Shown: positions 40,646-52,200, counted from the stretch's first letter. The stretch: 64,000 nt of DNA from an uncultured Porphyromonadaceae bacterium (GCA_947174335.1 CAMWIM010000004.1:6997-70996); one strand, 5' to 3'. The notes: generated by a model not told the origin, from the letters alone. Numbers and translations are program-made.

Positions 40646-41764
40646 CTATCGTTTTGAACTAGTTGAAAATCTTTTCTCAAATACATTATCTCTGTGGTAT
40701 TTAAGATACTCGATTCTTTTAGGATTTAGTAATTTTTTATCTAGTACAAAATTTGACAGGTATTTTTTCATATCATCATCTAAAGCATATGAAGGCATAA
40801 TTGTCCCATCATCAGAAAATGTAATATAGCCTAAGTCAAATAATGAGTCAAAAGCTTTATTTAAGAGTAGACCATTATTCAAATCAAATTGATCCGTAGA
40901 GCCATCGGTGCAATGACTATAGGGCTTAATATGAGAGGCAATAAGAACAGGGTGCGCTAATCCGTCCAACATACATTTAGGGGTCTTACATTTGTAATAT
41001 GAACAACTTTCCTCCTCAAGCTCTGATTTATAGACTCGTTGCAAGTACGGATCTCTTACTGCCTTTTTTTGTTTTTCATCGCCAAACAATCTATCAGCAT
41101 CCGTTTTGAAGTATATCATACCATCATGAATGCATAAGTCATCAAGGCGTCCTAATAAGTTTAGAAAATGTTCAATTTGATTATATTTTCTATCTATGAA
41201 GTCTATATCAGTTGCATTTTTATATAACCTATCTAGTTCTTCCTTGTTAAGAAATCCTTTTTTATATTTATTAATATCTGCATTCATAATTGCAATGAGA
41301 GCTCTTTTATCAAGAGCACCAACTTCTTCGAGAGTTTTCAATAAAAATTGGATTTGTTTAGTAGAATGACTTTCTGGTTCAGATATAGAATTTTGAAAAT
41401 TGCTATAACTATATACAATCTTAGATAAAATATTTGAACGTCGCCTATCAGTCTTAGCTTCAATATAGGATTTAGCCTCTGCATTATATCCTTGCATATT
41501 TGGCTTTAAAAAGCCAAGTTTAACCAATTGATTTATACCCTTCCTGGAAGAAGCGTCGGGCGAGTCTCCTTTAAACCCAATTGCATTAATAACCAAATCT
41601 TGTAATTTTTTATAGTCATCATCTTGGTAATTTTTTATACCATTTTCATCAAAATAATCTAAACAGGTCCGCAAACAGGTTAAAAATTTTTTACCATTTA
41701 AATCTGTCCAAGCAGCAGTATATTTCCAATATTCCTCGTATATTTGATTAACTCTATTTTTCAT
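40646..41764 (-). CDS. restriction endonuclease candidate with a C-terminal HNH nuclease domain
   Basis: ASHIKPYSHC....NGLLLNKAFDSLFDLGYITF is the HNH (PF13391-like) signature. 4-nt overlap with the upstream methyltransferase gene. Confidence 0.65.
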   Translation of the reverse strand: MKNRVNQIYEEYWKYTAAWTDLNGKKFLTCLRTCLDYFDENGIKNYQDDDYKKLQDLVINAIGFKGDSPDASSRKGINQLVKLGFLKPNMQGYNAEAKSYIEAKTDRRRSNILSKIVYSYSNFQNSISEPESHSTKQIQFLLKTLEEVGALDKRALIAIMNADINKYKKGFLNKEELDRLYKNATDIDFIDRKYNQIEHFLNLLGRLDDLCIHDGMIYFKTDADRLFGDEKQKKAVRDPYLQRVYKSELEEESCSYYKCKTPKCMLDGLAHPVLIASHIKPYSHCTDGSTDQFDLNNGLLLNKAFDSLFDLGYITFSDDGTIMPSYALDDDMKKYLSNFVLDKKLLNPKRIEYLKYHRDNVFEKRFSTSSKR

Positions 41765-42765
41765 AAATGTGTATCAATTAAAAATAAATATTCTATATCA
41801 TTCTTCTTTTTTTCTTTACCAGTAACACGGTATGCATAAGGCATTTCGTGTACAGCAATATCATTAGAAAAATGATTTAACAATTCCAACATTTCATCTT
41901 TAGAAGGCGTAGAACGGCTGTTATAACTTAACATCCAGTATCTATATTTAGAAAGTCTTGAAAATAATTCGTAGAAAAGATATTTGATATTTTTCTTGTC
42001 CATGAAGTTTTTATCAAAAGGCTTCACTTGTTCACCTTTTATATACGAATCAAGTAGCCCATAAAAGCCATAATAATCATTCATAGTTCCACTGTATGGC
42101 GGATCTAAATAAATAACATCTGCGTTGGTTATATTTATTGCATCAAAAATATCTAAATTGAGGGCTTTGTTATTTTTTTGATTATCAAATATAGCATTAT
42201 TATACTCATTTAAATTATCCTCAAAATGAAATCTAAATGTTTTATTATGATATGATCGTCGTCTGCCATATTTTGAATAACTTAAATCTTCATTCCTTAA
42301 CTCTACAATCTTATCCCAATTTATTGTAAAACGAGAGTATGGCATTTTTCTAATCATTGCTCTTCTAAGGAGAGCAAATGCTAGAGACTTTTTATATGGA
42401 TTTAAGAATGAATCAATGTTTTTACGAATTATATCAAGTTCCTTGCATTCGTCAGGATAATAAAATCGGTTAGAGTAATTATTAAACATAAATCCTTCGA
42501 TAGGCTCTCCACTAAATAGTTGGTCAACGTCATCTTTACTTAATAAAGTTTCATTATTTTCAATAAAGGCCTTTGCAATTTGAAAATTTATATTAAGTAT
42601 GTCGTTTGAAAAGACTTGAAGACCAAGTGTTTTAGCCTTGTAACTGACAGAGCAACCTCCCGAAAAGGCATCAAAAAATGAATTTGCATCGTGAGGGATT
42701 AATGATGCAATCCAATCTACAATCTTTTCTTTATTTCCAATATAATTTATGGTCGGATATTTCAT
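41761..42765 (-). CDS. N6-adenine DNA methyltransferase (D12/Dam-like class)
   Basis: INYIGNKEKI, FDAFSGGCS (FxGxG), IYLDPPY (motif IV). Confidence 0.8.
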   Translation of the reverse strand: MKYPTINYIGNKEKIVDWIASLIPHDANSFFDAFSGGCSVSYKAKTLGLQVFSNDILNINFQIAKAFIENNETLLSKDDVDQLFSGEPIEGFMFNNYSNRFYYPDECKELDIIRKNIDSFLNPYKKSLAFALLRRAMIRKMPYSRFTINWDKIVELRNEDLSYSKYGRRRSYHNKTFRFHFEDNLNEYNNAIFDNQKNNKALNLDIFDAINITNADVIYLDPPYSGTMNDYYGFYGLLDSYIKGEQVKPFDKNFMDKKNIKYLFYELFSRLSKYRYWMLSYNSRSTPSKDEMLELLNHFSNDIAVHEMPYAYRVTGKEKKKNDIEYLFLIDTHL

Positions 42766-43754
42766 TTATAAAGCATCTCTTTAATAGATTCAGCAATGCA
42801 ATATGCTAATTTAGGAGGAACGGAATTCCCAACCATTTGCTGTTGCTTTATGCTGTTCCCTAAAAAAATAAAGTTATCTGGGTAACTCTGAATTGCAGCA
42901 AGTTCTCGGACTGTCAACGCCCTATTTTGTGAATAATGAAAAACTTTTCTCATATCACCAGTAATACAAATAGATGGTTTTGTACTATCATAGCGAATAT
43001 ATTTTCTAATATCCCCTTTTTGAGGTCGAATTTCTTCTGGTATATCCATTCTTGAGCCACCATCTTTGACGTAACTCATTTTTTCAAGCATTTGGGAGGA
43101 GTGAGTCATTGCTTGATGATTTGGTATCAAGGAGTTTTGACCACTTTGTAATGGTGGATAGCAGTCAATAGCATCTTTGATAGTCATTTTAGAACCGCTG
43201 TGTTTTCGAGGAAATACTATATCAGTATCTATATTGTTCTTAATTCCTATAAATAAAACACGATATCTATTTTGTGGAACGCCAAAGTCTGACGCGCAAA
43301 CAATCTGAGCTTCAACCTTATATCCTACTTCTTCAAATCTTTTAATAATTTCAAACCTTGTAGAGCCATTAAGTCGAGTATATAATCGTGCGACATTTTC
43401 CATTACAAAACAAGTTGGTTTGACTATGTCTACAACTCGAACAAATTCTTTAAAAAGATTATTTCTTGGATCATCAAGGAACTTGCGACCTATATTTGAG
43501 GCCATACTAAACCCCTGACAAGGAGGGCCGCCTATAATTACATCAATTTTTCTACCATTAATTGCCTTTTTAATTTCATCACTTGTTAATTTTGTAATAT
43601 CAATTTCAAACAAATGATGATTAGGAAAGTTATAATTGTAGGTTCTACATATTTCATGATCATATTCAACTGAAAATATATTCTCAAATCCAGCCTTGTC
43701 AAAACCAAGAGAAAAGCCTCCTGATCCGGAAAATAAGTCAATGTATGTAGGCAT
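42762..43754 (-). CDS. C5-cytosine DNA methyltransferase
   Basis: DLFSGSGGFS (I), GGPPCQGFS (IV), ENV (VI), QNRYRV (VIII), GNSVPP (X). Confidence 0.9.
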   Translation of the reverse strand: MPTYIDLFSGSGGFSLGFDKAGFENIFSVEYDHEICRTYNYNFPNHHLFEIDITKLTSDEIKKAINGRKIDVIIGGPPCQGFSMASNIGRKFLDDPRNNLFKEFVRVVDIVKPTCFVMENVARLYTRLNGSTRFEIIKRFEEVGYKVEAQIVCASDFGVPQNRYRVLFIGIKNNIDTDIVFPRKHSGSKMTIKDAIDCYPPLQSGQNSLIPNHQAMTHSSQMLEKMSYVKDGGSRMDIPEEIRPQKGDIRKYIRYDSTKPSICITGDMRKVFHYSQNRALTVRELAAIQSYPDNFIFLGNSIKQQQMVGNSVPPKLAYCIAESIKEMLYK

Positions 43755-45419: not shown

Positions 45420-45583
45420 AGCAAGAGGCAAAAGAATAATACCTCTCTTGCTTACATGAACCAGCCAAATGTAGTATAAAATTATGAGATTTGGCTGCCT
45501 GATGTAAGTAAATTTATAGATTGTGCCACAAAGGTGCCAAATCAACAAAATTATACCAACATTTGGCACCTTCGTGGGTTTTT
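45420..45583 (+). other. cluster of three strong hairpins; the last has a U-tract on the plus strand
   Basis: H1: agcaagagg/cctct(ct)tgct at 45420-45452. H2: cagccaaat/atttggctg at 45462-45497. H3: ccacaaaggtgccaaat/atttggcaccttcgtgg at 45526-45577, then gttttt. The H2 and H3 loops are both 18 nt and both contain aaaattat. Confidence 0.6.
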
Positions 45584-45710
45584 ATTAAATATGCAGCCTA
45601 AAACCATATCTATGATATAGTGGAAGAAAACGATAAATCTCAAAATTACTCCACTCGAATAGTATTAAGAATTACATATAGTTAGCGTTATACATATTGT
45701 AATGATAAAT

Positions 45711-46403
45711 TTATTTAGGAGGTAGAATCTTAACAATGTGATGAAGCTCAATGTGCTCTTTCTTTGCGGCATTTAAAGCATATTTCAGTATGCGCATAAT
45801 GCCTGGGCTTCGTCTATGAATAGTCGATGGACTTAACCCCTGAAGATAGTTATTGATAGTGACATCACGAGTTAAAATATCTCTAATAATGGTTCCGTAA
45901 AATGGGTCTCTTAGAATTGACCTTGCTATAAATGCAGACTTATCATCCTCATTAAGTTCTTTATAAACATACCCAAAACAACTTAAATACCAGGAACTAT
46001 AATATTGAAATACCAGACCGAGCTGCTTAGATGTTTTTATTTGGTTTTCACCATACTTACGGAGTGCGTATTCCGTTTGACTCTTACAATAATGAGGAAA
46101 TAATCGACCAATTTCTTCAAATGAATAGCCGGGATTATCATTATCAGAAAGGATAGAACACATCTCTATTTCAGACGCAGAGAATGAGCTGCTTTGAGTC
46201 ATATCCTCTGTGCTAATTGGAGGGTAGTCCCAAGAAATAATGAAATAGAGAAATTCCTCGTAAGGAATATCGATAATACTCTTAACGTATTTTTTAAGCA
46301 TAGATATAGGGATGTTGTATGAATAATCATCCAACATCTTATCATTTACTTGATTCTCCAACGAACGGTAAAAGAAGGATTCTATCTTGCCTTGGTTATT
46401 CAA
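45711..46403 (-). CDS. hypothetical protein, last gene of the six-gene operon (possible HTH region)
   Basis: 8-nt overlap with the upstream gene. GYSFEEIGRLF...TEYALRKYGENQIKTSKQLGLV looks helix-turn-helix-like. No family recognised. Confidence 0.5.
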   Translation of the reverse strand: MNNQGKIESFFYRSLENQVNDKMLDDYSYNIPISMLKKYVKSIIDIPYEEFLYFIISWDYPPISTEDMTQSSSFSASEIEMCSILSDNDNPGYSFEEIGRLFPHYCKSQTEYALRKYGENQIKTSKQLGLVFQYYSSWYLSCFGYVYKELNEDDKSAFIARSILRDPFYGTIIRDILTRDVTINNYLQGLSPSTIHRRSPGIMRILKYALNAAKKEHIELHHIVKILPPK

Positions 46404-47382
46404 TAGACATCAGCGTTTTAAGTTGGGCATATAGTTTTTTCAACTCAGTATAAAGCCCCATATCGCTCAAATTTTCAAGAATAGCCGTGCTCTCGTTGGA
46501 TACCGCAATATTAAAGTTACGGATTTTGGCAGTGAGATTAGCTATTTTACTATCGCTCTCCACGAGTTCAACTGCCTCATCTAGTGACATTGTCTCATTG
46601 ATAAAGCCATTGATCGCTTCATCCGTGACCTCACTTTCAGAGCCGACAATCTTACCGACTTTTCTTAACTCACGAGCATCGGCAAATTTCCCGTCTTTGA
46701 TTCTTTCAAGAATGGTTTCTTTAATGGCTAACAGGGGATAGTTTTCATCTGCTCTTTGTATTGCGCCATTTTTAACAAACTCGTGATAGTAGCTCCATTT
46801 ATCACGCACGAGATCATCGTTTTGCTCCATAAGATCATAAGTGGCAATGTACTTATGAGCAGCAGAACGAGTAAGACCTAACTCATCAGCGATTGCATCA
46901 ACCTTTTTACGTGATGTCGTGATGCGCTTACGTAAATAAGCTGCTTGCTCAAAAGGAGACCAAGGAGTTTTCCCAATTATGTGCATGGTGCCAAGCAGAG
47001 AAAAAATCTGGTCAGCGGTTACTGATGAAGGAAGAAGGACTGCTCTAATGCTAGACCATTTAATGGGATCCTCATGCACGAGCAGGCGGTATGCAGCTAA
47101 ACGGCTGTTGCCTTCTAAAACTACACTATCTTTAACGAAGATAGGCTCAATGAGACCGCCATTAACCCTGATACTGTTTTTCAACTCCTTTACATGGTCA
47201 AGGGACTGCATCTTCTGCTCAATCTGCTCCTGTGTGGGATTATCACCAAATTCGGATTCGATAATGCTATTGATACGCGGGTTTTCAGGATAGTATTGTA
47301 GATCAACAATGCTGATGTCTGTTTCTACCGCCTCAACGATGCTGTTTTCAATGCGTATAAATTTCTTAGTCTCTTCCATCAT
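46396..47382 (-). CDS. ParB/Srx-like N-terminal domain protein (paralog 2)
   Basis: YYPENPRINS ... LKNSIRVNGGLIEPIFV...VVLEGNSRLAAY (ParB N-domain Arg-patch region). GKTPWSPFEQAAYL parallels GPRAWDPYSKAKYL in paralog 1. Confidence 0.7.
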   Translation of the reverse strand: MMEETKKFIRIENSIVEAVETDISIVDLQYYPENPRINSIIESEFGDNPTQEQIEQKMQSLDHVKELKNSIRVNGGLIEPIFVKDSVVLEGNSRLAAYRLLVHEDPIKWSSIRAVLLPSSVTADQIFSLLGTMHIIGKTPWSPFEQAAYLRKRITTSRKKVDAIADELGLTRSAAHKYIATYDLMEQNDDLVRDKWSYYHEFVKNGAIQRADENYPLLAIKETILERIKDGKFADARELRKVGKIVGSESEVTDEAINGFINETMSLDEAVELVESDSKIANLTAKIRNFNIAVSNESTAILENLSDMGLYTELKKLYAQLKTLMSIE

Positions 47383-48845
47383 TATTCAATGTTCAGTATG
47401 TTTCTTATAAGTTGAGCGAAACTGTAGTCCGCTTTTTTATGGTATTCAGAAATCGTGGTGTCTCCTTGCGCTAAAAAAGCGGCTTGTTGTTTTGCATACA
47501 ATAAGACATCGATCCATTCATCAATGCTATTCTCGACAATAAGATTGTAAATGTGACAATCTTTTTTTTGAGATAGGCGATGTATCCTATCCTGCGCTTG
47601 CAGATAATCATCTAGATTGAAACCTCGGTCATAAAAAATAGCATGATTAGCATTCGTCAATGTTAATCCCTCTTTTGCCGATTGGGGGGTGGCAAAGAGA
47701 ATCTGAGCATCACCAGATTTGAAAGCATTAACAGAATGGTTTCTGCTTTCCATATTCATTTTCCCCGTAATCTTTACCGAACGGAGAGATTTATATTTCT
47801 TAGAAAGTCTATCAATGTTATCCGTGAAAATGCTCCATACGATTACGCTTTCCTTATTCTCTACTATGGAATGAATTAACTCATCGAGTTTTGCTTCTTT
47901 GGCAGAAATAGCATCGTAAGAATCATCTAAAAGCGATGGATTCGAAGCGATTTGAACTAAGCGGAGTAATCGTTTAATTGCTTCTGGAGATTCATCAAGG
48001 ATGGTACTATCACCTTTAACAACGGATATTTGCATTTCCTTTCTTACTGTGTCATACATTTGGTGTTGTCGTTCCTCAAAGGGGACCGCAATTGTGTGAA
48101 CATACTTACTTGGTAAAGTAATGATCCCACTATTTTTTGTTTCTCGAACAGAGAAGGATCTAATCTTATCAAATATTGATGATACGCTATTTTCAAAGTA
48201 AGCCACCCTACTTTCATTATAACCTAAATCGTTGGATAAGTCACATTGGGTCTTAAATTCATTGAAATCCTCACCAAGACTCTTTCCCTGGTCTAAAAAG
48301 AATATTTGTGCCCAAATATCATACGGACGATTCGCAACTGGGGTGCCGGTCATTATAACTCTACGCTTAAAGTAAGGTGAAAGTTCAAAGAAATCTTTAG
48401 TAAGTTTCGAGTCGGGATTCTTAATCTTTGTAGATTCATCTATTATTATGCCAACGTTCCTAGTTTGAAGAAATAGCTTTATTCTCTCTTTTTCTCCGCT
48501 AATTGTTTCAAAATTGGTAACAATCAATCTTGTCGGACTATTAAACACGAAGAAGTTATCCCCTTTTCTGGAAGTCAAAATGTCGGGACGTAAGGATGTA
48601 TGGTTTTTAATCTCTGAGAGCCAATTAAATACTAATGTCTTTTTTGTAACTATTATAACGGTGTCTATAGAACTCTGAAGCCAGTAAAGAAGAATATCAA
48701 TCGCAATTTTAGTCTTTCCGAGACCTTGCTCATGGAAGATTGCACCATACTCTAAATCTTTAATGGCATCCACTGCCTCAGTTTGATACTTAAAGGCATC
48801 AAACTTAGTGGAGTAATCAAATATTTCATCGTAAATTACAGACAT
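47382..48845 (-). CDS. SNF2-family helicase/translocase (core only, 487 aa)
   Basis: GLGKT (I), IIIDESTKIKN (II), MTGTPVANRPYDIW (III), QAQDRIHRLSQ (VI). Confidence 0.85.
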   Translation of the reverse strand: MSVIYDEIFDYSTKFDAFKYQTEAVDAIKDLEYGAIFHEQGLGKTKIAIDILLYWLQSSIDTVIIVTKKTLVFNWLSEIKNHTSLRPDILTSRKGDNFFVFNSPTRLIVTNFETISGEKERIKLFLQTRNVGIIIDESTKIKNPDSKLTKDFFELSPYFKRRVIMTGTPVANRPYDIWAQIFFLDQGKSLGEDFNEFKTQCDLSNDLGYNESRVAYFENSVSSIFDKIRSFSVRETKNSGIITLPSKYVHTIAVPFEERQHQMYDTVRKEMQISVVKGDSTILDESPEAIKRLLRLVQIASNPSLLDDSYDAISAKEAKLDELIHSIVENKESVIVWSIFTDNIDRLSKKYKSLRSVKITGKMNMESRNHSVNAFKSGDAQILFATPQSAKEGLTLTNANHAIFYDRGFNLDDYLQAQDRIHRLSQKKDCHIYNLIVENSIDEWIDVLLYAKQQAAFLAQGDTTISEYHKKADYSFAQLIRNILNIE

Positions 48846-49255
48846 AAGATCTCGGTGTTAGTGTTGTCTGATAACAGATGAAACGTTACATCCTTTACAT
48901 TATGCTTTTCAATGAGTAAATTAACGTAGTTGAAAAGAGAGCAGAATGCGATGAATGGTACGCATAATACTATGTGGCGTTCTCCGTCAAACAGTTTTAC
49001 CTCCTCAATATAAGAAAGTATTTGGTCTTGAGTGTGTGGATTTATCAGGTCGTTTTCGGTCTTTGCTTCACCTATAATAATAGCTTTAGGATCTTTATAG
49101 AATACATCCGGATAGAAGCCCCCAACTACACGACTAGTACGAGTGTTGTAATTGTCAAGATCGGCTTCAATGAAGTCTACACAACAATACGGTATAGTTT
49201 CAAGATATGAAACTATACTCCTTACAAGTTGTTTGTGTAGCCTACTTTCAGCCAT
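48836..49255 (-). CDS. small PD-(D/E)xK nuclease-fold protein
   Basis: FYPDVFYKDPKAIIIGEAKT gives PD-x12-E-A-K, the classic restriction-endonuclease-like motif. Overlaps both neighbouring genes. Confidence 0.55.
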   Translation of the reverse strand: MAESRLHKQLVRSIVSYLETIPYCCVDFIEADLDNYNTRTSRVVGGFYPDVFYKDPKAIIIGEAKTENDLINPHTQDQILSYIEEVKLFDGERHIVLCVPFIAFCSLFNYVNLLIEKHNVKDVTFHLLSDNTNTEILCL

Positions 49256-50282
49256 TTTGGATTTCGCGGATATTTTCTAGTATGATATTCAGTTGGCTTT
49301 CGAGCGATTGAAGATGATAGACTCGTTCACTAGCTTCACTACTATCATCAGTTGCTAATCTCTTAATTTCAGATATGGAGGGTTCGCTTGAGATGAGTTT
49401 CTTGTATAGTTGAGAGACTAATACATAGTATGGGTATTTGCTCAAGTCGGCAGAGTCTAATTCTGCCGCAAAAATTATTTTTTCGGCTTCTCCCAGATTC
49501 GTATGTAGGAATTTCGCTCTGGCTTCATCATTGGCTAAGACCTTAGGCAGAATACGGACCCTTTGGGCAGTGTCTATATTACCTTCGGCAACCCACTCGG
49601 CAAAAATTGATAAATCAAACCCCGCCTTTCTTATGCTGTATTGGATTGCGTTGTTCTGAAATTCATGGAATTTAGAAAACTCCCGAATATCAAAACGCCT
49701 GTTTCGTTTTGAACTGACATAAGGTCGGTAGTATGTCTCCATATACTGGTAAGCAGCTATACTTCGCTGAATTTCTGTTTTGCCTCCTCCGCATAAGGAG
49801 ATTATAGTATTGAGAGGCATGTGCTCTACCTCACTCAATTGCCAAAGATATTTGGCTTTCGAGTAAGGATCCCAAGCTCGAGGGCCAACGAGATGAGATT
49901 GCAATCGAACCTCATGCTTTTTCTCATTCTCAAGTCGGTCATAAACAATCGCAGGGATTCTATCCCATAGTCCTGAACTATCATTCTTTTGGAACTCTTT
50001 ATAAATCTGAAGACGAGTATTGCCTTCGATAGCAACATACGTTCCATCTTCTTCTAAAGAAACTATAATGGGATGTATAATACCGCCACATTTCTTAATA
50101 GAATCTCTCAAAGATGTATAAGAGGTGGTAGCATCCTGCGTATTTGAGCTATTAGATAACGCAAGAGCAATATGCACCGAGGCAATCTCCTCCCTTGGAT
50201 AGTTGTCAAGATAATTCTTGATACGCGGATTGTCTATATCAAGGCGTATCAGCGATATGTCTAAATTCTCGTGACGTGGCAT
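49248..50282 (-). CDS. ParB/Srx-like N-terminal domain protein (paralog 1)
   Basis: LIRLDIDNPRIKN ... LRDSIKKCGGIIHPIIV...YVAIEGNTRLQIY. Confidence 0.7.
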   Translation of the reverse strand: MPRHENLDISLIRLDIDNPRIKNYLDNYPREEIASVHIALALSNSSNTQDATTSYTSLRDSIKKCGGIIHPIIVSLEEDGTYVAIEGNTRLQIYKEFQKNDSSGLWDRIPAIVYDRLENEKKHEVRLQSHLVGPRAWDPYSKAKYLWQLSEVEHMPLNTIISLCGGGKTEIQRSIAAYQYMETYYRPYVSSKRNRRFDIREFSKFHEFQNNAIQYSIRKAGFDLSIFAEWVAEGNIDTAQRVRILPKVLANDEARAKFLHTNLGEAEKIIFAAELDSADLSKYPYYVLVSQLYKKLISSEPSISEIKRLATDDSSEASERVYHLQSLESQLNIILENIREIQNG

Positions 50283-50284
50283 AA

Positions 50285-51673
50285 CTATTCAGATTTAAGC
50301 CATAGATTCGGGTTTACCAAATCTCTTAGGCGAAGATTAAAGAGTCGTAGTAATTCTTTCTTATGGGATGAGAAGCGTTCCAAAAATGAGATAATGGTTT
50401 TTAAGGGCAATGATATTTTTTTATCAGTATAATAACCATTATTAAAGTCAACTATAAACTCCTCATAAGATTTTATAGGAGTCACTTTTAATCCTAGAGT
50501 ACGTTCCTCCCAAAAAGTTTGGTTTCTATAACAAAATTCCCAAAAGGACATTTTTTTGTAAAAAGCAGGCTGGTTACACCAGCGTGCAATCTGAACATAA
50601 ATGTTTTGGAGTTCATGATTGTGGTAATCTTCATGGCGCATAATATAGCCTAGACAGCCATATTTCATAAGTACTTCTATACGATAAAATATTTCCTTAA
50701 TATCTTTAAGCAATAAATCATCATCGTTAGAATTTAACTTATAACCGCAGAAAAGATAAAATTTTGTTTCTTTTTTATTATATCGTTTCCAAATTTTTAA
50801 TGCTTTCTCAATTTTGGGCCTATCAGACCAATTGTCAAAAGCAAAAATATAATCGCCATGATATTTACATTGTGATAACAACTCTGCAATTTCTTCTCCA
50901 TATGGACTTTCAGCTAAGATACGTTCATCCAAACCTTGCCTAAATTGAAAAGGTCGTCTTGTTTCCATTAACTCCTTTAGAAGTGGTCGCCATATTGAAG
51001 GAGAAGAAGCCAAAAAGTTATCATCCCATAAATAAATATAAGGACGTTTTAGTCTTCCTTTTTCATCTTTTTCATCACTCAAAAACCATTGAATTTTAGA
51101 ATAAGGAAGGATTCTATTCTCAAAACGATTTACACAAAATGGGCATTTGCGGAAACACCCTCTGGTAAGGAATCCAATAGAGTACTGAAGATAATCTTTA
51201 TAATACGATTTCTTTCGTCCTGCTGCAATTCGCTTTTCTATGTATGGAACGTATAGATCATAGAATGGCATCTGATGAGCCATTGAAATGCCCATCTCTT
51301 TGCCATCTCTCATATTTGGATAGCGATTCAAGAATGGGTCATTTTCAAGTTGCATCATATCTACAGAACGATATTGCCTAAATCCCATTTCGTTTTCATT
51401 TAATGCGTAAAACCCAGTACCACCCCAGCGAAAACGAGATTCTTTTCCTTTCTTTTCCTCCTGACTTCTATTAAAAAACTTAGGATCTTTGGTAAATGAA
51501 AAAACCTTACTAATATATATAAGATGAAATTCCGAGATGTCTTCATTCTCAGATTCAATTAATCTAAATTCGATATTATGATCATTAAGAAAACCAGCAA
51601 GTTTAAGCAATGCGAGGTTAGGATGGCGGGTTCCGCCATCCAATAGATCTGCATCGACTAAACCAATTTTCAT
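50285..51673 (-). CDS. radical SAM protein with an N-terminal Rossmann/B12-binding-like domain
   Basis: TRGCFRKCPFC is CxxxCxFC, with the aromatic residue expected before the third Cys. The N-terminus MKIGLVDADL...NLALLKLAGFL resembles class-B radical SAM N-domains. Confidence 0.7.
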   Translation of the reverse strand: MKIGLVDADLLDGGTRHPNLALLKLAGFLNDHNIEFRLIESENEDISEFHLIYISKVFSFTKDPKFFNRSQEEKKGKESRFRWGGTGFYALNENEMGFRQYRSVDMMQLENDPFLNRYPNMRDGKEMGISMAHQMPFYDLYVPYIEKRIAAGRKKSYYKDYLQYSIGFLTRGCFRKCPFCVNRFENRILPYSKIQWFLSDEKDEKGRLKRPYIYLWDDNFLASSPSIWRPLLKELMETRRPFQFRQGLDERILAESPYGEEIAELLSQCKYHGDYIFAFDNWSDRPKIEKALKIWKRYNKKETKFYLFCGYKLNSNDDDLLLKDIKEIFYRIEVLMKYGCLGYIMRHEDYHNHELQNIYVQIARWCNQPAFYKKMSFWEFCYRNQTFWEERTLGLKVTPIKSYEEFIVDFNNGYYTDKKISLPLKTIISFLERFSSHKKELLRLFNLRLRDLVNPNLWLKSE

Positions 51674-52059
51674 TATGTATCTTTGAACTATGCAATTTTA
51701 CATTCATCGACCCCCTGATGAATATATAGATACAAAAAAAGCGCAGGATCCGTACTTGTTACTCGTCCTGCTGCTAAAGGCCTTCGCATTGCCCGAAATA
51801 GTAGAACGAGCAACGCAGAGCCTACGCCGTATGAATATATTATACACCATAGTAGACTATATTATAGATATAATCAACCAATGGGTACACATCATACCCG
51901 AAGACATCTACAGTTGCTTCATTCTCGACTATTTCTTAAGAGGTTGCGAAGTTCTTAGCAGCCAAGAATTAAGCGAAAGTAAACGCTTTTGAAATATGTT
52001 TTAAACCCACCCATCCGACGGATAATTTCGTCATCGGCGTAGATTTCACTGCAAAATTA
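51674..52059 (-). promoter_or_regulatory. structured 5' leader, copy C (in front of the six-gene operon)
   Basis: The -7 box TAATTTTG is the rc of 52052-52059. Small hairpin at 51972-51987. Box gttgcgaagtt at 51943-51953. Long hairpin at 51741-51827 with apex aggccttcgcattgcc at 51778-51793. U7 is the rc of 51734-51740. Confidence 0.7.
51734..51827 (-). terminator. terminator-like long hairpin + U7 inside leader C
   Basis: GCGCAGG (51741-47) pairs with CCTACGC (51821-27), with a G.U pair only if read on the minus strand. Inner stem gttactcgt/acgagcaac. Followed on the minus strand by UUUUUUU. Confidence 0.6.
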
Positions 52060-52200
52060 CAAATAATATTGGGACAATCAATATTTTATCTTAAGAATTA
52101 TATATTAATACACTCTTGGTCTAAAATATGTGTTTTAGTGGCTATGAGATAAATAAACATTACGTTTTTGAGGGGATAAAAGCTCGATTTTCACTGTCTT

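Follow-up and report, generated by a model that had tools for sequence, protein, structure and literature searches.

The described routes of epigenetic self-labeling of DNA are methylation, phosphorothioation, and 7-deazaguanine insertion. In the Dnd, Dnd-PbeABCD, and SspABCD-SspE systems, the module for modification is combined with ATP-dependent restriction modules that can replace one another, and proteins of the ParB superfamily are involved (DndB, and the DUF262 domain of SspE). In the Dpd system (DpdA/B/C plus DpdD-K), the ParB-like NTPase DpdB aids the modifier and the SNF2-type protein DpdE belongs to the restriction part (PMC12839542). In DISARM (DrmA, DrmB, DrmC, DrmD/DrmE, and DrmM), the SNF2 helicase DrmD works with a modification enzyme, and in type I Zorya the ZorD protein is an SNF2 helicase fused to an Mrr-like PD-(D/E)xK nuclease. 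The locus described here was found in a 64,000-nucleotide (nt) stretch of DNA from an uncultured Porphyromonadaceae bacterium (GCA_947174335.1, CAMWIM010000004.1:6997-70996; the whole stretch is referred to as the window). It is a cassette of six genes that encode a divergent radical S-adenosylmethionine (SAM) protein (rSAM; g1), two ParB/Srx-like proteins (g2 and g5), a small nuclease candidate (g3), an SNF2 ATPase (g4), and a helical protein (g6). With a confidence somewhat better than even, we assign this cassette to a family of modification-restriction type defense systems in which the divergent rSAM protein replaces the methylase or the Dnd module. That it is an anti-invader system of some kind is quite likely.

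The likeness to each of the described systems is partial. No homologue of DndA/C/D/E or SspA-D is detected in the cassette with PADLOC, the candidate modifier is an rSAM protein unrelated to the PP-loop protein DndC, and the restriction part consists of ParB, nuclease, SNF2, and ParB proteins rather than DndFGH. The restriction modules of the Dnd, Pbe, and Ssp systems (DndFGH, PbeA/C/D, and a DUF262-DUF1524 protein) do follow the rSAM gene in sister loci. DndB carries a DGQHR motif, whereas g2 and g5 have EGN(T/S)R and do not match DndB. Relative to Dpd, there is no DpdC in the cassette and there are six genes instead of about eleven. The protein g4 matches DpdE (7e-39), but its 487 amino acids (aa) cover only the helicase core, positions 725-1163 of the 1176 in the model. 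The cassette in the window lacks DrmA, DrmB, DrmC, and a methylase. The rSAM gene precedes a DrmA/DrmB pair in 36 sister loci, but these have a NERD helicase and an uncharacterized 795-aa protein in place of DrmC/D/E/M. The products of g3 and g4, whose genes overlap by 10 nt, resemble a split version of ZorD, but ZorA, ZorB, and ZorC are absent and the match of g4 is confined to the helicase portion. Unlike type I-III restriction-modification (RM) systems, no methyltransferase domain is detected in g1-g6 with Pfam, and the nearest methyltransferases belong to a separate operon beyond mtaB. An earlier reading of this DNA (the original prediction) had proposed a modification/restriction-type defense system with the rSAM protein as the sole plausible modifier. 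It had also stated that tgt/DpdA, DndACDE/SspABCD, and methyltransferase genes are missing from the cassette and that no named system matches it. Scans of g1-g6 with Pfam and PADLOC agree on the missing genes, and the single-protein models of PADLOC returned no named system. The proposal itself is strengthened by the relatives described below, in which the rSAM gene precedes DndFGH, Pbe, DrmAB, LlaJI/McrBC-like, and GmrSD/SspE-like modules and phage copies lie among methyltransferases.

Relatives of the rSAM gene were sought in one genome per species. At least 205 species genomes carry one, and the best 80 of the 205 stretches were analyzed. For the typing of architectures, the six proteins of the window were mapped and all open reading frames (ORFs) around the rSAM gene were clustered, in 84 loci. 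The carriers are mostly gut or rumen Bacteroidales. Sporadic carriers in Clostridia, Lachnospiraceae, Akkermansia, and Kiritimatiellia point to horizontal spread. Cultured carriers are Paraprevotella clara YIT 11840 (DndFGH type), Parabacteroides segnis BX2 and Dysgonomonas sp. 520 (both DrmAB type), Bacteroides ndongoniae Marseille-P3108 (Pbe type), Muribaculum intestinale YL27 (ParB-SNF2 type), and Prevotella sp. tc2-28.

The ORF that follows the rSAM gene shares its strand in every related locus (83 of 83), and the median distance between the two is 6 nt. The rSAM gene is the first gene of at least six alternative module types. Type A (about 15 loci) is the architecture of the window, with ParB, nuclease, SNF2, ParB, and g6 genes after the rSAM gene, and occurs in several Bacteroidales lineages with unrelated flanks. 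In type B (36 loci, for example L020), the NERD helicase and the 795-aa protein are followed by DrmA (1e-178) and DrmB. In type C (17 loci), the rSAM gene is followed by DndF (5e-90), DndG (8e-35), and DndH (E = 0), and in type D (12 loci) by PbeA (8e-203), PbeC (1e-85), and a 153-aa protein. Three further arrangements were each found at a single locus. These are an AAA_5 (McrB-like) gene with a KilA-N gene and a DUF2357/PDDEXK_7 gene; an AAA_5 gene with a LlaJI-like gene; and g6 with a GmrSD protein (DUF262-DUF1524; SspE-like). A divergent relative on a conjugative element (L173) precedes a complete set of PbeA, a 60-aa protein, PbeC, and PF27807 'DNA_S_mod_dnd_assoc_4'. Divergent rSAM-g6 fusions in L171 (2659-8349) and L172 (2208-7916) are placed tail to tail with an opposite-strand operon of NurA, HerA, an LmuB-like ABC ATPase, and a 270-280-aa protein. 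This NurA-HerA operon is a candidate for a further partner module.

When the rSAM proteins were clustered by identity with average linkage, types A, B, and D were mixed in one clade and types B and C appeared in others. The interleaving of the module types in the rSAM tree indicates that partner modules were exchanged many times around a constant rSAM gene. All six genes are present in order in L093, a contig from a viral collection, with identities of 38% for the rSAM protein and 66% for the SNF2 protein, and the type A architecture is old. The original prediction had treated the six-gene set as the conserved unit. The order is indeed kept in the type A loci and in L093, but the constant unit across the family is the rSAM gene, with or without g6. 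The evolutionary unit is rSAM (+g6) with interchangeable partner modules and not the six genes as such.

The rSAM loci are found in defense islands or mobile elements, with PARIS, Septu, and AbiL neighbors, an integrative element, and a conjugative element among their settings. PARIS AriA, Septu PtuA, AbiLi, HEC-01A, and PD-T4-4 recur in the flanks of type C and D loci. No Dnd, Ssp, or methyltransferase family was seen two or more times in these flanks (up to 10 kb, top 25 of 335 PADLOC families). In M. intestinale YL27 (L001, CP021421; 10001-14582), the cassette is part of an integrative element that carries genes for an integrase and Mob. The rSAM, ParB, and 139-aa genes are intact there, the SNF2 gene is cut by an insertion to 332 aa beside a transposase-like gene, and g5 and g6 are missing. 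YL27 is predicted to be a natural 'modifier only' strain.

The rSAM motif of g1 is C173-x3-C177-x2-C180, written CFRKCPFC, and the protein matches phrog_9298, 'radical SAM domain protein', at 5e-34. Both results bear out the CxxxCxFC signature on which g1 had originally been called an rSAM protein. None of the three cysteines varies among 30 homologues or in three phage homologues. Beyond the CxxxCxxC motif, many barrel residues are likewise unchanged across 30 proteins (61-78% identity) and the phage homologues. Three additional cysteines, C309, C340, and C366, sit in the C-terminal part of the barrel. All cellular members of the family have them; among the phage homologues, two keep them and a third has lost all three together. 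This triad suggests an auxiliary iron-sulfur (Fe-S) site, and g1 probably holds a second Fe-S cluster. The most variable part of the g1 family comprises residues 31-165.

AlphaFold2 models of g1 and g6 were compared with known structures using Foldseek, and rSAM-type matches were obtained for g1. Its model (predicted local distance difference test score, pLDDT, of 89) consists of an N-terminal alpha/beta domain and a barrel. The best matches are the B12-dependent rSAM enzymes TsrM, OxsB, and MgmA, followed by RimO, with E values from 1.6e-6 to 1.7e-4. The Foldseek probability is 1.00 for these four and 0.98-0.99 for AprD4. A sequence-profile search of the PDB with the rSAM alignment returned nothing. 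In common with the class B enzymes (TsrM, OxsB, and MgmA) and RimO, g1 has an N-terminal Rossmann-like domain followed by an rSAM barrel, and its three extra conserved cysteines, as a hint of an auxiliary cluster, recall the sulfur-inserting rSAM enzymes. Unlike RimO-type methylthiotransferases, g1 does not have its extra cysteines in an N-terminal UPF0004 domain and lacks a TRAM domain. Judged by motif and barrel-type fold, g1 is very probably a member of the radical SAM superfamily, although it matches no curated family model. As to its chemistry, C-methylation is a speculation hinted at by the B12-rSAM-like fold, and sulfur insertion or electron transfer is one hinted at by the cysteine triad.

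Some relatives of g1 depart from its length or domain layout. The rSAM frame runs about 150 aa further upstream in L060, L073, L076, L080, and protein P0163, with products of 602-628 aa. Of proteins P0221 and P0244, one is an rSAM homologue with a LAGLIDADG_3 domain (an intein or homing endonuclease) inserted in it, and in the other the C-terminal part of a C5 DNA methylase is fused before the rSAM domain.

The 230-aa g6 protein, originally described as having no family match, indeed has none in Pfam, NCBIfam, or PADLOC, and a PDB sequence-profile search with the g6 alignment returned nothing. Its AlphaFold2 model (pLDDT 93) is helical. A search with a g6 profile located g6 as the last gene of type A loci wherever that end of the cassette exists; in L007 it was detected by tblastn only, and the truncated Muribaculum copies (L001-L004) lack it. 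In L077, in four of the type B loci, and in three of type D, g6 is the gene immediately 3' of rSAM. The remaining type D loci encode a single product of about 704 aa, in which g6 forms the C-terminal part behind the rSAM protein, and at least 10 further rSAM-g6 fusions are found among representatives of 50%-identity clusters. By this repeated fusion, g6 is a Rosetta-stone partner of the rSAM protein. One other explanation was considered for the constancy of g1, as a mere conserved border gene of a mobile element beside a cargo hotspot. This was rejected, since the median gap is 6 nt, the strand is constant, and g1 occurs fused to g6.

The association with g6 can also be read as that of a sensor or regulator, in which g6 is a repressor-like DNA binder and the Fe-S/SAM domain is a sensor of the redox state, of the level of SAM, or of interference by phages, and the two together license the expression or activity of the downstream nuclease module. 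Some free g6 homologues have a C-terminal Peptidase_S24 domain, in a LexA/CI-like layout, or other extensions. The g6 model contains a helix-hairpin element with a weak resemblance to winged-helix proteins, small genes for Xre-type helix-turn-helix (HTH) proteins lie upstream of the rSAM gene in other loci, and the operon in the window has an elaborate leader. The invariance of the full rSAM motif and of many barrel residues, however, indicates catalysis rather than sensing. The phage copies have no g6 and lie in methyltransferase clusters, and a regulator would not normally be translated first in six different systems and also be their largest and best conserved gene. We regard a sensor or regulator as quite unlikely.

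Shorter homologues of g1, about 365 aa in length and 36-44% identical, are encoded in at least 473 viral stretches of IMG/VR. They lack the residues that correspond to about 93-127 of g1 and the C-terminal 80 or so residues, and neither g6 nor a nuclease partner accompanies them. The recurrent order in phages is a SAM-synthetase-N-like gene, a ParB_N-N6/N4 methyltransferase gene, the rSAM gene, a C5 methyltransferase gene, an uncharacterized gene, and terminase genes. A methyltransferase gene (ParB_N-N6/N4 or C5) is adjacent to the phage rSAM gene in 26 of 73 loci and within three genes of it in 39; a SAM-synthetase-N-like gene is within three genes in 20 of the 73. In phages of GenBank, for example Caudoviricetes vir335 and Bacteroides phage BKO1-TP3, the rSAM gene is near phrog_62 SNF2 helicases, ParB-like proteins, and methyltransferases. 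The short g1 homologues between ParB_N-N6/N4 and C5 methyltransferase genes are placed like members of the phage methyltransferase clusters upstream of terminase, and this neighborhood is the pattern of phage orphan modification genes. A phage protein of about 276 aa with only the N-terminal domain of SAM synthetase (PF00438, 3e-9; cluster V4 in L102-L147, for example L131 1656-2486) regularly precedes the methyltransferase and rSAM genes. It suggests a phage module built around the supply or use of SAM.

The phage neighborhood also bears on the possibility that the rSAM protein is itself an effector or co-effector. It would then make an antiviral small molecule or an altered nucleotide, in the manner of viperin or Ophion, or deplete a metabolite, as a second layer beside self-sufficient nuclease systems. 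Defense rSAM enzymes do exist, namely the pVips and OpnA in Ophion (10.1101/2025.09.30.679545), and DndFGH and Pbe-type systems have been argued to stand alone (PMC10853773). In every type C locus and in most of type B, the rSAM gene is present but g6 is not. On the other hand, g1 shows no detectable similarity to the viperin-type models of PADLOC and is recurrently fused to g6, a protein confined to these loci. For a layered effector, neither the constant first place in the operon, at a 6-nt median gap, nor the position between phage DNA methyltransferases is expected; phages would gain little from an antiviral effector. An effector role is considered unlikely.

The remaining proteins of the cassette were compared with family models and structures. 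The motifs GLGKT, DEST, TGTPVAN, and QAQDRIHRLSQ are present in g4, and SNF2-rel_dom (PF00176, 5e-28) and Helicase_C (PF00271, 1e-17) are matched above their gathering cut-offs, in accord with the SNF2 core first read from the motifs. The best PDB matches of g4 are ISW1 (3e-26) and the snf2/rad54-family helicase 1z63 (3e-24). It also matches phrog_62 (7e-93) and, in PADLOC, ZorD (5.6e-41, the best), DpdE, and DrmD, each in the helicase part only. The motifs EGNTRL of g2 and EGNSRL of g5, from which the two were originally called paralogous ParB/Srx N-domain proteins, are present and the proteins are about 22% identical, but the matches to ParB_N (PF02195; E 0.007 and 0.053) and to the ParB family TIGR00180 (2e-4) are below the cut-offs. 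The NPR and EGN(T/S)R boxes are invariant in 16 g2/g5 orthologues, and a profile from these orthologues reaches the ParB structure 7bnk in the PDB at E 0.021. The phage families that g2 matches best are phrog_3694/620. The PADLOC candidate PDC-M38A matches g5 at 2e-9 and g2 at 6e-7, over only about 155-170 of 715 model positions; with this partial coverage in place of a full-length match, the identity of the cassette as PDC-M38 was rejected. The signature P49-D50 ... E63-A-K65 is present in g3, and E3, H7, P49, D50, E63, and K65 are invariant in 11 orthologues. No match to g3 was found in Pfam, NCBIfam, PADLOC, or phrog, nor in the PDB with the alignment profile. Of the PD-x12-ExK nuclease fold first assigned to g3, the sequence signature is borne out. 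The invariant residues fit a PD-(D/E)xK nuclease, for which g3 is a candidate.

The phage matches of g4, g2, and g1 (phrog_62, phrog_3694/620, and phrog_9298) raise the possibility that the block is the remnant of a replication-recombination module from a phage or mobile element, in the service of that element's own DNA metabolism. SNF2, rSAM, and ParB-like genes can adjoin in phages (vir335 and BKO1-TP3), and one full copy is on a contig classed as viral (L093). Against this, neither an integrase nor any further phage gene is present on the island in the window, which is placed between core genes. The same gene set is found at about 15 loci from several Bacteroidales lineages, where the flanks are unrelated, and the rSAM gene is otherwise linked to recognized defense modules. 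Such an origin is very unlikely.

The modification-restriction model is the best supported. The rSAM gene stands where DndABCDE, SspABCD, or a methylase stands in the described systems, its phage copies lie among methyltransferases, and g1 and g6 are fused in many relatives. Several of the modules found after the rSAM gene are known normally to need, or to pair with, a self-marking module. We infer that DNA is the substrate of g1, that the mark is non-canonical, and that proteins of the cassette read it. In the proposed mechanism, g1 would place a covalent non-canonical mark on the DNA of the host. Its partners would be the helical g6 and possibly the ParB-like g2, the latter in the manner of DpdB with DpdA; the ParB-like ATPase DpdB, which assists a DNA-modifying enzyme, is a precedent for g2 (PMC12839542). 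Together, g3 and g4 would be an endonuclease driven by ATP, comparable to ZorD or DpdE in split form. As ParB-like NTPases, g2 and g5 would act as loaders onto DNA or as readers of its state, and the outcome would be cleavage of incoming DNA that lacks the mark. Analogies for such NTP-dependent loaders or readers are provided by DpdB (PMC12839542) and by the DUF262 domain of SspE. Transcription would proceed from a Bacteroidetes-type promoter through a 257-nt hairpin leader with a U-run, and read-through is probably throttled.

A broader proposal, to which we give a little less than an even chance, is that g1, with g6, represents the founding member of a new class of DNA-modifying rSAM enzymes. 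It would provide a non-methyltransferase 'self' label common to DndFGH, Pbe, SspE-like, DrmAB, LlaJI-like, and ParB-SNF2 modules in gut anaerobes, with a C-methyl, methylthio, other sulfur, or backbone adduct as examples of the mark. Phages would have captured the enzyme as an orphan counter-defense.

A number of points weigh against the modification-restriction model. The McrBC- and GmrSD-type partners usually target modified DNA. The g1 protein has no match in Pfam, NCBIfam, or PADLOC, and neither PF04055 nor the B12-binding model PF02310 reaches E 0.1. The template modeling (TM) scores of its fold matches are low, 0.38-0.42. The 'class-B-like' label of the original prediction is suggested by these low-scoring fold matches; the best of them are to B12-dependent enzymes, as the label implies, but a B12-binding domain is not matched in sequence. 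By homology, no DNA-binding or DNA-modifying rSAM relative is known. In the Foldseek comparison of the g6 model with the PDB and BFVD, nothing was found below E 0.3, and g6 therefore has no significant structural match. The S24 fusions of g6 recall LexA/CI-type repressors, and a regulator fits as well as an enzyme subunit. The g6 gene is absent from most type B loci and from every type C locus. In one metagenome-assembled genome (MAG; L081, 5265-6646), the rSAM gene is frameshifted near residue 215 and g2-g6 are intact; if the frameshift is genuine and not an assembly error, it counts against an obligatory protective role. Dnd or methylase genes may be present elsewhere in the genomes with type C or D loci. 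DndFGH and CxC/Pbe systems were described as often uncoupled from Dnd genes and argued to stand alone, and some may use 'entirely different modifications' (PMC10853773). That study makes no mention of the present rSAM family. If these systems do stand alone, a modification partner is not logically required.

The coordinates of the cassette and of the features around it are collected in Table 1. The ORFs, their common strand, and their close packing agree with the original prediction: g1 and g2 are separated by 2 nt, and the subsequent genes overlap by 8, 10, 1, and 8 nt. The same six products are present in the gene calls on two independent public assemblies. Look-ups by exact sequence returned no record for the rSAM or the MtaB protein of the window. 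The AT-richness first noted for the block is seen in its GC fractions of 0.32-0.43, compared with 0.44-0.51 for the flanking mtaB gene (UPF0004 and Radical_SAM domains) and the FtsX/MacB-type permease gene. The RM operon predicted on the other side of mtaB was located as a separate AT-rich island of three genes between a lipid A acyltransferase gene and mtaB. With the RM island on one side and the cassette on the other, mtaB is flanked by two independent foreign islands. In the interval between g6 and mtaB (45448-45577), two hairpins are present, and neither is followed by a U-run on the operon strand. This region could be an operon terminator or an mtaB control element.

Table 1. Positions of the cassette genes, regulatory features, and neighboring elements, counted from the first nucleotide of the window
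Feature	Coordinates	Strand	Description
g1	50285-51673	-	462 aa; divergent rSAM enzyme with N-terminal Rossmann-like domain, CxxxCxxC barrel, and 3 further invariant Cys; proposed DNA modifier
g2	49248-50282	-	344 aa; ParB/Srx-like protein 'a' with invariant NPR and EGNTR motifs
g3	48836-49255	-	139 aa; small PD-(D/E)xK-type nuclease candidate
g4	47382-48845	-	487 aa; minimal SNF2 ATPase/translocase core
g5	46396-47382	-	328 aa; ParB/Srx-like protein 'b', about 22% identical to g2
g6	45711-46403	-	230 aa, TTG start; helical protein ('C12' domain), rSAM partner
Six-gene block	45711-51673	-	g1 to g6
Probable operon promoter	52052-52059	-	TAATTTTG; fits TAnnTTTG, taken as the Bacteroidetes -7 consensus
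Leader RNA	51734-51990	-	one imperfect hairpin of about 257 nt with a U7 end, about 60 nt before the g1 start codon
Direct repeat, left copy	52091-52105		same 15 nt as the right copy; 17 nt outside the homology limit at 52074
Direct repeat, right copy	45665-45679		15 nt, TTAAGAATTA(C/T)ATAT; homology to L006 ends at 45671
Hairpin, g6-mtaB interval	45526-45542/45561-45577		arms with 94% complementarity
Hairpin, g6-mtaB interval	45448-45470/45489-45511		arms with 83% complementarity
RM island	40646-43754		HNH_2 endonuclease, D12 N6-adenine methyltransferase, C5 methyltransferase

The probable promoter of the operon fits TAnnTTTG, the Bacteroidetes -7 consensus. The structured leader reported in the original prediction is confirmed by its folding energy and by covariation. 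Its minimum free energy is -124.5 kcal/mol, against -90.2 +/- 5.3 kcal/mol for shuffled sequences (z = -6.4). A search with nhmmer located the hairpin leader 5' of the rSAM gene at five more loci, which are of types A and D (L005, L006, L056, L073, and L075). In the alignment of the six sequences, 95% of cells are paired and compensatory changes occur in 26 of 72 pairs, compared with 10 +/- 2.3 for shuffles (0 of 500 reach 26) and 2-8 for slid controls. The structure can be assigned to the operon (sense) strand from the many G-U pairs that all or nearly all of the sequences retain. The Rfam search gave nothing credible at the gathering threshold for the whole window or at E <= 10 for the leader; the leader is thus not a known riboswitch, the cobalamin and SAM classes included. 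A protein-coding explanation for its conservation was rejected because, from locus to locus, the longest open frame changes its strand and its reading frame. We infer a lineage-specific element of the attenuator type. A processed RNA or a protein-binding site would be other possible roles.

The leader hairpin travels with the rSAM gene across two different module types. Other genes take the upstream position elsewhere. In loci of types B, C, and D (L013, L022, L025-L027, and others), a gene some 50 nt 5' of the rSAM gene often encodes a protein of about 85-115 aa (cluster C8) that has the motif GGMYQEWMSLIDLVEED and no family match. The alternative in type B, C, and D loci is an Xre-type HTH protein of about 73 aa (cluster C15), in place of the hairpin leader.

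The same island is present at another genomic site in L006, a Muribaculaceae MAG. The homology extends over 6.4 kb, from window position 52074, just upstream of TAATTTTG, to 45671. The nucleotide identity is about 99% in g2-g6. It falls to 47-78% per 100-nt segment in the 5' part of the rSAM gene (51584-51100), with values of 47-71% over 51584-51097, and is up to 91% further 5' and in the leader. This 5' part marks a recombination mosaic within the most variable region of the family (residues 31-165), and the mosaic may represent a swap of specificity. The 15-nt direct repeat near the two ends of the island in the window is absent around the copy in L006, and its two copies may be due to chance or to a target duplication.

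Pfam, NCBIfam, and PADLOC contain no model for g1, g3, or g6. In the literature, no description was found of an rSAM protein with ParB/SNF2, DndFGH, DISARM/DrmA, or anti-phage DNA modification; only unrelated systems were returned (Ophion, and reviews of Dnd and BREX). Ophion, the only rSAM defense system found there, is viperin-like and unrelated in composition. The logic of the proposed system is that of restriction-modification, and its new part is the modifier. The idea is directly testable, since cultured carriers exist. If the rSAM protein does mark DNA, it would provide a new chemistry for epigenetic self-labeling, and one that is widespread, with at least 205 species genomes, mostly of gut or rumen Bacteroidales, and at least 473 viral contigs. 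It would bear on the discrimination of self from non-self by DndFGH and Pbe-type systems without Dnd genes. A new DNA mark in dominant gut taxa would also affect the interpretation of long-read methylomes and the transformability of the carriers.

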